Source: Escherichia coli
GTDB lineage: Bacteria > Pseudomonadota > Gammaproteobacteria > Enterobacterales > Enterobacteriaceae
DNA length: 1,099 nucleotides
Reading direction: 5' to 3' (one strand)
Assembly: GCF_003334255.1 (NCBI RefSeq)
Contig: NZ_QOWU01000175.1
This document shows positions 1-1,099 of the stretch, piece after piece (position 1 is the first letter of the stretch; each line of letters starts with the position of its first letter). Below the pieces are notes generated by a model. The model saw only the letters and a list, made by a program, of their open reading frames with translations, made no database searches and had not been told where the DNA came from. The translations under genes and the position numbers were made by a program.

Positions 1-68
1 CCACCACTCATCACCAGAAGCCCGGCCAGAGAAGATGACAGGAGTGTCATTGTAAACTTTTTACTCAT
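1..68 (-). CDS. 5' end of a gene continuing beyond the window start; N-terminus resembles a signal peptide or membrane anchor (product unknown)
   Basis: ATG at 68..66 (minus) preceded by CAGGAT with an 8-nt spacer; translation [23 protein letters not shown] has a basic n-region (KK) followed by a hydrophobic stretch; codons are typical enterobacterial (CTG, GCC, GGG). Only 22 complete codons are visible, so the call is weak. Confidence 0.4.
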   Translation of the reverse strand, partial: [22 protein letters not shown]

Positions 69-76
69 TATGGATA

Positions 77-80
77 TCCT
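77..80 (-). promoter_or_regulatory. Shine-Dalgarno-like AGGA for the gene starting at 68
   Basis: Minus strand reads CAGGATATCCATA-ATG; AGGA at 80..77 lies 8 nt from the ATG at 68..66. Confidence 0.35.
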
Positions 81-103
81 GTTAAATTATCTGTATACAA
101 ATC

Positions 104-144
104 AGCCGTAACACACTCATAAAAAAGTCTGATTAATTACGGCT
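104..144. repeat. Perfect 8-bp inverted repeat AGCCGTAA (104-111) / TTACGGCT (137-144) with 25-bp spacer
   Basis: Read directly from the sequence; lies 36-76 bp upstream of the minus-strand ATG at 68. Function (operator or RNA stem) unknown. Confidence 0.5.
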
Positions 145-164
145 TTATTCAGGATATTCCGAAA

Positions 165-194
165 ATAAATTTAAAAATTAATTTTATAAATTTA
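165..194. repeat. 9-bp direct repeats ATAAATTTA (165-173 and 186-194) flanking a perfect 12-bp A/T palindrome AAAATTAATTTT (174-185)
   Basis: Read directly from the sequence; repeat spacing is 21 bp (about two helical turns) in a stretch that is almost pure A/T. Confidence 0.4.
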
Positions 195-258
195 GGATTT
201 GTCTTACATTATTCTGGGCATACCTGCTCACGCATACGACCACACCGCCGGAACAGAT

Positions 259-345
259 ATCAGAAAAAACTTACCCCAGTCAGACTTGCTGTTTCACATC
301 TGCTTACACTGTAATTTGTGAACAAAATTACAACATCAGAAAAAA
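259..345. repeat. Exact 11-bp direct repeat ATCAGAAAAAA at 259-269 and 335-345
   Basis: Read directly from the sequence; on the minus strand both copies read TTTTTTCTGAT, and the 335-345 copy follows the hairpin at 346-361. Confidence 0.4.
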
Positions 346-361
346 TTAACTATTCAGTTAA
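340..361 (-). terminator. Weak terminator-like hairpin plus T-run downstream of the 427..1008 CDS
   Basis: On the minus strand, TTAACT-GAAT-AGTTAA (plus 346-361) is followed immediately by TTTTTT (plus 340-345). The stem is only 6 bp with a single G:C pair, so predicted stability is low. Confidence 0.2.
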
Positions 362-426
362 CATGAAATATTTACAGGAGGAATAGTTCATGAGGGAAAG
401 AAATGTTTCCCCCATATTTTTATCTG

Positions 427-1008
427 TTATTCCTGTGCCCAGCCAACCCTGTATGCCAGTATCTCATCCGCACTGGTCAGCTTTTCCAGCTCTTTCTTCA
501 TGGTGCGCTGCCGGACGTGGATTTCCATCCCTTTGGTAAACATCGCCTGCTCTGCAGCAGCACTCAGAGCAATCAGTGTTTCAGCGTCCATCGGTACGTC
601 ATTATTGTCCGCATCCGTCCAGAAAAACTGCTCCGGCAGTTTCCCCGCTTTCGCTGCCGCCACCGACGGCTCAAGACGCGTCTGCGTTGACTTCCCGTAG
701 TCCCATTTACGCCCATTGTGCTCAAACGTGTAGTTCGCCGCTTCCATCGCATTACGCCAGGCGTTGATCCCGGCGGTTTTGAGTTCTCTGGCTTTTTCCG
801 GGCTGATGGATGGCTGTACATATTCTGCAATTTCACCGGCCTCTCCTCTCAGACAAGCGGCATAAATATCCCGCCCGTATGCTTCGGTATCGCTGGCTGT
901 TGCAGTGAAAGGAACCGCCTGCTCAATGTGCTCAAACTTCACCATGCAATTGACAGCAGTGTGCTCTTTATCTGCCCATTGCGGATTGCTTATTTTTTCC
1001 ACATTCAT
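427..1008 (-). CDS. Phage tail-associated protein, tail-fibre-assembly/chaperone-type (possibly DUF4376-like C-terminal region); 193 aa from the SD-supported start
   Basis: Only long ORF with protein-like composition (six-frame track 427..1083, stop TAA at 427-429). Minus strand reads ACAGGAG-ATG-AAC-ATG: AGGAG at 1015-1019, ATG at 1012-1014 (0-nt spacer) and ATG at 1006-1008 (6-nt spacer), so 1008 is the best-supported start, giving MNVEKISNPQWADKEH... A further in-frame ATG at 1081-1083 overlaps an upstream stop (TAATG) and is an alternative start. Family call rests on remembered similarity of the C-terminal stretch (FFWTDADNNDVPMDAETLIALSAAAEQAMF...EILAYRVGW) to small prophage tail-fibre-adjacent proteins; no search was run. 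Confidence 0.78.
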   Translation of the reverse strand: MNVEKISNPQWADKEHTAVNCMVKFEHIEQAVPFTATASDTEAYGRDIYAACLRGEAGEIAEYVQPSISPEKARELKTAGINAWRNAMEAANYTFEHNGRKWDYGKSTQTRLEPSVAAAKAGKLPEQFFWTDADNNDVPMDAETLIALSAAAEQAMFTKGMEIHVRQRTMKKELEKLTSADEILAYRVGWAQE

Positions 1009-1014
1009 GTTCAT

Positions 1015-1019
1015 CTCCT
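1015..1019 (-). promoter_or_regulatory. Shine-Dalgarno (AGGAG) for the 427..1008 CDS
   Basis: Plus-strand CTCCT at 1015-1019 is AGGAG on the minus strand, 6 nt upstream of the ATG at 1008..1006. Confidence 0.55.
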
Positions 1020-1099
1020 GTCTGTCAGTATGCGCGCTGGAACAGCCCGATGCCTTCATTGTCATTTGTCGACGTAATTTCATTACACACCATCCATGA

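Follow-up and report, generated by a model that had tools for sequence, protein, structure and literature searches.

The AT-rich spacer upstream of eibC/eibE in Escherichia coli prophages: a probable front end of the eib module with a predicted RNA leader

Morons are extra genes with their own promoter and terminator, which lie between conserved phage genes, such as lom and bor of phage lambda. The loci closest to the one studied here are the eib loci of the prophages P-EibC, P-EibD and P-EibE, all from Escherichia coli ECOR-9, in which the tail-fibre-associated gene orf-191 precedes an eib gene for a YadA-like trimeric autotransporter. We analysed a stretch of 1,099 nucleotides of E. coli DNA (contig NZ_QOWU01000175.1), called the window below, and in particular its spacer at 69-426 between orf-191 and eibC/eibE. 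By megablast against phage records, AF151674 (P-EibC) and AF151676 (P-EibE) are 100% identical across window 1-1037, and AF151675 (P-EibD) is 99.0% identical to the window. The likeness covers the sequence, the order orf-191, stem-loop, eib and the annotated features; no difference is seen, and the window is that locus or belongs to a strain with the same prophage segment. The ECOR-9 records are credited to Sandt and Hill 2000 (cited in PMC4352079); they annotate orf-191, a stem_loop and eibC/eibE on the minus strand (Table 1). The spacer is a known non-coding stretch before eibC/eibE, in GenBank since 2000. The locus itself is textbook mosaic prophage biology, a case of the standard prophage cargo found after tail-fibre genes, and as such already known. 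Only the AT stem-loop is marked in the spacer of these records; the conserved blocks and the leader described here are absent from them.

Eib proteins bind immunoglobulins non-immunologically and drive the chain-like adherence of Shiga-toxin-producing E. coli negative for the enterocyte effacement locus (LEE). They are proposed to aid complement resistance, and their expression changes strongly as growth conditions change. Shaken culture has very little EibG protein and static culture much, with the mRNA up 3.16-fold only; the EibG level is higher at 37 °C than at 23 °C, higher at mildly alkaline than at acid pH, and falls from microaerobic through aerobic to anaerobic growth (PMC4352079). EibA, EibC, EibD and EibE of ECOR-9 behave like EibG (PMC5450701). 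A post-transcriptional element would be expected to alter the protein more than the mRNA, as is seen here. A high stability of the protein, likewise reported, could contribute to the gap. We add the exact position of the module junction (378-384), a map of the conserved blocks upstream of eib and a testable leader structure, which could account for the gap between mRNA and protein change and is a modest lead.

The eib module and its non-coding upstream region

The spacer is very probably the non-coding front end of an eib moron that some lambdoid E. coli prophages carry after their tail-fibre genes. This follows from two lambdoid prophages integrated at one tRNA-Ser/hya site, one with and one without eib. 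In JE86-ST05 (locus L176), which is 99.8% identical to the window, the order is J, lom, tail fibre, DUF4376, spacer, eib, orf156, ykgJ, tRNA-Ser and hyaA. S1-CAM-02-A (locus L020) has a closely related DUF4376 gene (~95-98% identical) and the same ykgJ/tRNA-Ser/hyaA flank, without eib. BLAST homology between the two runs through the tail genes to window 385 and resumes in ykgJ. After window 385, JE86-ST05 has 2,722 bp, the eib-orf156 module, versus 128 bp in S1-CAM-02-A, and the trailer at 385-426 is kept in this eib-less prophage. Thus, the accessory module begins inside the spacer. An earlier note, made from the letters of the window alone, had called for a comparison of this kind, with an isogenic or related genome lacking the prophage. 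It had read the spacer as a moron insertion point or a prophage boundary; the first part stands, since a 2.7-kb module is present or absent at window 385, and the second falls, since eib and orf156 follow.

Further features agree with a moron. The whole window is present in 9 of the 5,426 complete E. coli genomes scanned and the spacer in 41 of them, with a YadA-like gene adjoining in every case. In P-EibC, orf156, orf60 and the autotransporter gene eaaC come after eib, and the induced phage PhiR12_3 has further tail genes and lom beyond the eib position. A terminator-like hairpin, GCAGGACTCTGGTCTGC followed by CGTTTTT, lies 34 nt past the eibC stop on the coding strand; it is a match to the consensus only and coincides with a GenBank stem_loop. 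The G+C content is 47.2-47.6% in eib and 52.7-61.6% in the tail genes, and Eib is made by lysogens without induction (PMC4352079, PMC5450701). Presence and absence, terminator-like hairpin and composition are all as in a moron, and only a mapped promoter is missing from this set. No terminal repeats were found around the eib module. The likeness to lambda lom and bor thus lies in presence or absence between similar prophages, a surface protein, low G+C, a terminator-like hairpin and expression in the lysogen. The eib module differs from them in having several genes (eib-orf156, in some cases also orf60 and eaa) and in its unusually long conserved upstream region of ~310 bp, with a candidate promoter only.

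The limits of the spacer are exact, with the orf-191 stop codon at 427-429 and the eib ATG at 66-68, both on the minus strand. Its 358 nt have 32.4% G+C, versus 47.1% in window 1-68 and 52.6% in 427-1014, close to the ~32% between ~50% coding flanks given by the earlier note. In the 9.7-kb P-EibC record it is the sole 358-nt stretch with at most 36% G+C and lies ~7 binomial standard deviations under the record mean of 51.6%. The G+C-richer island reported inside it at ~211-300 is also real, with 48.9% at 211-300 beside 24.6% at 69-210 and 29.4% at 301-426. Both neighbouring genes are as the earlier note had described them. The product of orf-191 is tail-fibre associated, with matches to Pfam DUF4376 (2.5e-19) and to PHROG 1141 'tail fiber protein' (1.5e-79), and its counterpart in phage PhiR5_2 is annotated 'tail fiber assembly protein'; the RefSeq start of orf-191 is two codons later, at 1008. 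BLAST of the spacer and flanks, also proposed there, identified the downstream gene as eibC/eibE through the P-EibC and P-EibE identity given above. Its signal-peptide-like N-terminus is the annotated start of EibC/EibE, 22 of its codons fall within the window, and RefSeq names the product 'YadA-like family protein'. Full EibC matches PHROG 10464 at 4.5e-207, and its C-terminal part matches the 'adhesin' PHROG 17426. The suggestion that this gene encodes a surface or exported cargo protein is therefore borne out by prophage-borne EibC/EibE, and the other suggestion, a host envelope gene, is dropped because the gene occurs in prophage contexts only. Furthermore, the gene is no structural tail gene of the kind that the earlier note had set as the opposite case, and the spacer is not found in all related phages.

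The part of the spacer linked to eib recurs behind different upstream genes. Where the upstream gene is another one, homology starts at ~377, at GTAAATAT, and loci with a giant LPD38/LPD5 gene instead of DUF4376 have only window ~60-375 in common, at 72-87% identity. Metagenome and viral-contig scans raise the total to 19 distinct variants. Segment conservation, given in Table 1 as mean pairwise identity among seven lineages, is strongly patterned.

Table 1. Features of the window, with the basis of each assignment or its mean pairwise identity among seven lineages
Feature	Position	Strand	Basis or identity
eibC/eibE 5' end, signal peptide of YadA-like trimeric autotransporter	1-68	-	GenBank coding sequence starts at 68
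First codons of eib gene	43-65	-	identity 0.48
Non-coding 5' region travelling with eib-type genes, ~309 bp	69-377	-	recurs behind different upstream genes
Predicted structured leader, ~90 nt: P1 150-160 with 72-81, P2 104-144, P3 89-102	72-160	-	RNAalifold, 12 distinct leaders; identity 0.6-0.9
eib Shine-Dalgarno AGGA, in 3' arm of P1	77-80	-	pairing probability ~1.0 in 12/12 leaders
A+T-only palindrome, the GenBank 'stem_loop' (L001 8818-8846)	166-194	-	inverted repeats I3, I4; identity 0.61
Conserved block AGAATAATGTAAGAC	201-215	-	identity 0.83 (measured over 195-215)
Variable linker, core of the GC island 211-300	216-293	-	identity 0.55-0.69
Operator-like 24-mer AAATTACAGTGTAAGCAGATGTGA	294-317	-	identity 1.0
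CRP-like palindrome TGTAA-N6-TCACA	317-332		identity 0.82
Distal block including palindrome 346-361	334-377	-	identity 0.78
Conserved palindrome TTAACTGAATAGTTAA (AACTGAACAGTT in other lineages)	346-361	-	alignments
Junction of tail-module and eib-module homology	378-384		tail homology stops at 385; eib-linked homology starts at ~377
Tail-gene trailer, 42 nt, travels with that gene	385-426	-	L020 homology ends at window 385
10-bp hairpin AUGGGGGAAA/UUUCCCUCAU in trailer	390-415	-	inverted repeat I9 and folds
orf-191, DUF4376 tail-fibre-associated (assembly-like) gene	427-1014	-	GenBank coding sequence orf-191C/E
Tail fibre gene, 3' end	1025-1099	-	RefSeq coding sequence in 99.8%-identical JE86-ST05 (L176 15025-16461)

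The most conserved element is the operator-like 24-mer. It is identical throughout the type A and B lineages, including the loci L004-L008 that were found by BLAST of the whole spacer, and all lineages place it 252-258 nt from the ATG. In the window, a run of six T at 340-345 follows the palindrome of the distal block. The linker between the 24-mer and the next block keeps a length of 78-81 nt in seven lineages despite ~45% divergence, with 38-51% G+C and no conserved or significant fold (z +0.96 to -2.17 in the seven lineages, with folds that differ by lineage). The constant length, low identity and conserved flanks argue that the GC island is a variable, length-constrained linker and not a separate insert. 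The earlier note had taken the island as a hint of mosaic origin; no segment upstream of eib is less conserved (0.55), and the island is constant in length and held between conserved blocks. An exact-word scan of species-representative genomes gave 0 matches for a 20-mer of the invariant block and 20 for a 19-mer of leader hairpin P3, all in unrelated AT-rich taxa, and a loose gapped pattern scan of viral contigs returned random matches only. As far as these scans show, the element is confined to E. coli prophages.

Several individual loci are worth recording. In four eibG-type loci (L004, L006, L007 and L008, ~3369-6320) the upstream protein has ~2,790 amino acids with an LPD38 or LPD5 domain and is not a tail-fibre assembly protein; a strong hairpin, GCCCCGTACGGAAGTGCGGGGC, at the end of its gene stands directly before the shared 5' region. 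RefSeq apparently starts the YadA-like gene at L008 2428-3993 (E. coli strain 48, IM34_RS11620) too far downstream. The frame is open from the ATG aligned with the eib start, for ~506 instead of 392 amino acids, so the 'long spacer' there is coding sequence. The metagenome contig OLXK01011964.1 (L148, aligned over 259-392) matches the window type from the tail-gene side up to the 24-mer and the L005 type beyond it, towards eib; it is a natural recombinant with the crossover within the 24-mer. Four eibA/PhiR5_2-type loci (L021, L022, L154 and L155) have a different spacer of ~680-800 bp, of which no more than the final ~130 nt are common to the window type. Where the window has its AT-palindrome, immediately 5' of the leader, they carry a 13-bp hairpin, GGAAAUUCCGAA...UUCGGAAUUUCU.

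The predicted leader and its possible role

The last part of the spacer before eib is predicted to fold as RNA. A long hairpin (P2) and a small hairpin (P3) are enclosed by a closing helix (P1), which contains the Shine-Dalgarno sequence of eib. The same three-helix architecture is found in every single-sequence fold of the sequence types A, B and C, which are 60-73% identical. Type B leaders (L013, L008) are 60-65% identical, and type C is that of the eibA/PhiR5_2 loci. Each type forms P1 from different partners: AUAUCCUG with CAGGAUAU in type A, containing UCCUG/CAGGA, UCCUCAUG with CAUGAGGA in type B, and GCUCAUG with CAUGAGC in type C, where the start codon lies inside the helix. Of the 10 pairs in P1, five are G-C. 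In P2, stepwise and compensatory changes are seen, from U-A to U-G to C-G and from G-C to A-U, and L013 has a perfect 13-bp stem there. The minimum free energy z-scores of the leaders against shuffles are -3.65, -5.21 and -2.47. For the whole spacer, z is -3.46 on the minus-strand RNA (0/100 shuffles) and -1.67 on the plus strand. Cells pair to 91% on the sense strand and to 76% on the antisense strand, and G-U cells outnumber A-C cells by 76 to 11, an excess that favours a sense RNA over DNA or an antisense RNA. Altogether, a folded leader probably exists, with modelled support that is suggestive and not proven.

Two observations concern short reading frames in the leader. The eibC/E leader of ECOR-9 lacks five bases, GTGAG (~113-117, P2 apical, minus strand), which are present in 18 of the 18 other variants. 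P2 is shorter as a result, and an upstream ATG comes into frame with an upstream open reading frame of 12 codons, MSVLRLICIQII, ending just before the Shine-Dalgarno region. Short upstream frames were rejected as a general element of the leader; they have no Shine-Dalgarno sequence and their frames differ between types.

For transcription, the best comparative promoter candidate is a -10-like hexamer, TAnnnT, at 206-211 on the minus strand, within the conserved block AGAATAATGTAAGAC. It reads TAATGT, TAACGT, TATAGT, TAGGGT or TACACT at the same position in types A, B and C and is followed by a conserved AAG. In a JNEC-KY208 deletion mutant, 168 bp of upstream DNA on pGEM sufficed for eibG and for heterologous adhesin genes, and the hexamer falls within this fragment (bioRxiv 10.64898/2025.12.25.695649). 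The JNEC-KY208 spacer is 96.5% identical to that of the window. Upstream, the CRP-like palindrome at 317-332 has one mismatch to TGTGA-N6-TCACA; by chance the window would have 0.06 such sites, and one or more occur in 11 of 200 shuffles. Other lineages have TGTGA-N6-TCAGA or TGAGA-N6-TCATA at this position. It is a lead only. The ops/JUMPStart element of RfaH was tried and rejected: GGCGGTAG is expected and the window has GGCGGTGT at 238-249, which is not consensus, and the segment is not conserved (CCTACGTTGC in L007, CCTCCGTTGC in L008). By eye, LexA, Fur, FNR and OmpR motifs have no convincing match in the window.

These elements can be put together in a working model. In the lysogen, a weak promoter within the AT-rich tract would drive eib transcription; with TAnnnT at 206-211 as the best candidate, the leader would be ~130 nt long. 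The AT-rich DNA and the upstream blocks (24-mer and CRP-like palindrome) may be sites for host regulators, which would produce the pattern of high expression in static and stationary culture, at 37 °C and at mildly alkaline pH, and of low expression in shaken culture or at 23 °C. The last ~90 nt of the leader would fold into the three-helix structure, with the closing helix pairing the Shine-Dalgarno sequence (the AUG in the eibA type) with a conserved segment that contains UCCU and lies ~70 nt upstream. Until some factor opened this helix, translation would be kept low or the mRNA protected. During lytic growth, late transcription would read through from the tail genes into eib, which is possible because no minus-strand terminator lies between them. 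That the leader is a translational gate rather than an mRNA-stabilising 5' structure is somewhat less likely than not. It is conceivable, and proposed here with some reserve, that the Eib-group prophage genes for trimeric autotransporters share an undescribed two-part cis-regulatory unit: a ~90-nt leader, opened by a host factor, that closes off the Shine-Dalgarno sequence in types A and B and the start codon in the eibA type, and an invariant 24-bp operator-like block ~250 nt before the ATG. If true, this unit would explain why Eib protein is near-absent in shaken and abundant in static or stationary culture with an mRNA change of only about threefold.

Several results weigh against this model, and the pairing counts bear on both sides. 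On the unbiased MAFFT alignment the pairing itself is high, with 94.8% of cells paired versus 93.4 ± 0.4 in shuffles (reached by 1/500), and covariation is weak, with double changes at 2 pairs versus 0.9 (100/500 shuffles) and a covariation score of 0.146 versus 0.128 (23/500). The alignment fitted to the model and including type C speaks for the fold, with 91.0% of cells paired versus 86.1 ± 0.7, double changes at 8 pairs versus 3.3 and a covariation score of 0.236 versus 0.166 (0/500 shuffles for each), but it leans to structure by construction and is made of related sequences. Controls with the structure slid along the alignment have 32-49% (MAFFT) and 33-49% (model-fitted) of cells paired. 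The ribosome-binding window chosen a priori (-14 to +3) pairs no more than it does in shuffled leaders (p 0.27, 0.14 and 0.55); only the P1 arm, chosen post hoc, stands out against shuffles (p ~0.003-0.007). On the side of transcription, consensus scans gave no good sigma-70 promoter on the minus strand, and no convincing -35 was found for the -10-like block. The 168-bp complementation used high-copy pGEM, so that read-through from the vector may have contributed. The CRP-like palindrome is a borderline case, with p ~0.055 before correction for the several motifs tried. A CpxR-like tandem, GTAAG-N5-GTGAA, in the 24-mer was discarded, with 2 matches versus 1.16 expected by chance. Finally, for loci found via exact search the invariance of the 24-mer is partly given by construction. 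In the literature we found no paper that maps the eib promoter or leader.

Alternative explanations

The alternative that survives best, still an unlikely one, is that the conserved leader region acts as DNA, with a promoter or operator near the start codon, and not as folded RNA. Weak -10/-35 candidates are indeed present inside the leader (GATAAT at the 3' side of P3, and TTGCGG-16-TAATTT), and the block TTTGTATACAGATAATTT, which contains a DNA palindrome, is conserved in all types. However, promoters at these positions would start transcription at or past the Shine-Dalgarno sequence. The G-U pairs make the helices strand-specific, and the partners in P1 change jointly between types A, B and C.

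We find it distinctly improbable that the spacer is an inert AT-rich filler or recombination scar, in which blocks and helices would reflect recent common descent only. The sequences are related and come from one species, the double changes are not significant on the unbiased alignment and no strong promoter was found, all of which would suit such a filler. What speaks against it is the strongly patterned conservation, at 1.0 for the 24-mer and 0.8-0.9 for the leader arms versus 0.55 for the linker and 0.48 for the first codons. In addition, the spacing is constant despite 40% divergence, three sequence types keep the fold via different pairings, and the G-U pairs are asymmetric between the strands.

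Nearly as improbable, or slightly more so, is a role of the leader as an RNA thermometer of the zipper type, which would melt at 37 °C and so explain the higher Eib level at 37 °C than at 23 °C. Known thermometers of the ROSE and fourU kind typically carry mismatches. The eib leader resembles them in a paired Shine-Dalgarno sequence within the 5' leader of a virulence-associated, temperature-dependent gene, and published EibG levels drop at 23 °C (PMC4352079). The difference is that P1, with its 10 pairs and five G-C, has no such mismatches, and that the eib helix is predicted not to open between 23 and 50 °C; no family match is found either. The predicted Shine-Dalgarno pairing stays at 0.98 or above over this range, both in the short leader and in a 290-nt context, and because it does not loosen, a simple thermometer is unlikely.

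That the GC island is a small independent gene, for a micro-protein or small RNA, inserted in the spacer is very improbable. A 40-codon plus-strand open reading frame at 199-321, a 21-codon minus-strand one at 260-325 and a local hairpin at 219-261 in the fold of the window could be taken for it. One- and two-nucleotide indels among homologues break both frames, and the 24-mer is invariant at every codon position, unlike coding sequence. Conservation is lowest in the island, which has no conserved or significant structure, terminator or Rfam match; a small RNA or conserved hairpin there was rejected on the linker z-scores given above, each lineage folding differently.

The remaining idea, that the spacer marks an att-proximal prophage end with a host envelope gene downstream, has in its favour that the same tail gene is the last prophage gene in eib-less S1-CAM-02-A with host tRNA-Ser/hya within a few hundred bases, and it is refuted for this window by eib and orf156 preceding ykgJ/tRNA-Ser in the window's own context (JE86-ST05), by the genes that follow eib in P-EibC and in induced PhiR12_3, and by the occurrence of eib in prophage contexts only (41 of 5,426 genomes).

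Neighbouring features and comparison with known systems

The trailer on the tail-gene side of the junction contains a hairpin (Table 1) whose stem is perfect on the minus-strand RNA, counting one G-U pair. After it the minus strand reads GAACUAUUCC, with no U-run, so the hairpin is not a canonical terminator of the tail gene. A plus-strand scan scores it as terminator-like, followed by CCATATTTTT. No Rfam 15 family reaches its gathering score in the window, and nothing is found over 69-300. The best match, to the enterobacterial small RNA STnc540, lies at 345-466 on the minus strand (16.9 bits versus a gathering score of 38, E 0.71) and covers the 3' end of the tail gene and the trailer hairpin. 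Such trailers may yield small RNAs derived from 3' ends. Another sub-threshold match, to Mu-gpT-DE at 1006-1030 on the minus strand (16.6 bits versus 49), lies over the ribosome-binding region of orf-191 and is probably a mere Shine-Dalgarno-plus-ATG resemblance. A 49-codon plus-strand open reading frame at 390-539, antisense to the 3' end of the tail gene, has a strong AGGAGG 8 nt before its ATG (376-539 in all). This AGGAGG falls exactly on the module junction, and the frame is probably spurious.

Breaks are also observed within orf-191. Several genomes match window 1-768 or 1-800 only, and others 385-1099 or 439-1099 only, with breaks at ~765-800. The 3' half of the DUF4376 gene can thus travel with the spacer and eib, and its 5' part with the tail fibre gene, which points to recombination inside the gene.

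Beyond the morons and thermometers compared above, two described systems come close to the eib front end. The protein H-NS silences AT-rich promoters of horizontally acquired surface-protein genes. We found no paper linking eib to H-NS. The likeness consists in a tract of 24-32% G+C directly upstream of an acquired adhesin-like gene and in an expression that is low in standard shaken culture and temperature dependent. Among leaders, that of rpoS sequesters its ribosome-binding site and is opened by a trans-acting factor, and that of ompA consists of stabilising 5' stem-loops. The eib leader has no sequence similarity to them and no Rfam family, and its fold is a predicted one. It shares with them a long-range helix of anti-Shine-Dalgarno and Shine-Dalgarno sequences enclosing hairpins, as predicted here, together with an expression that rises in stationary phase and a protein change that exceeds the mRNA change.

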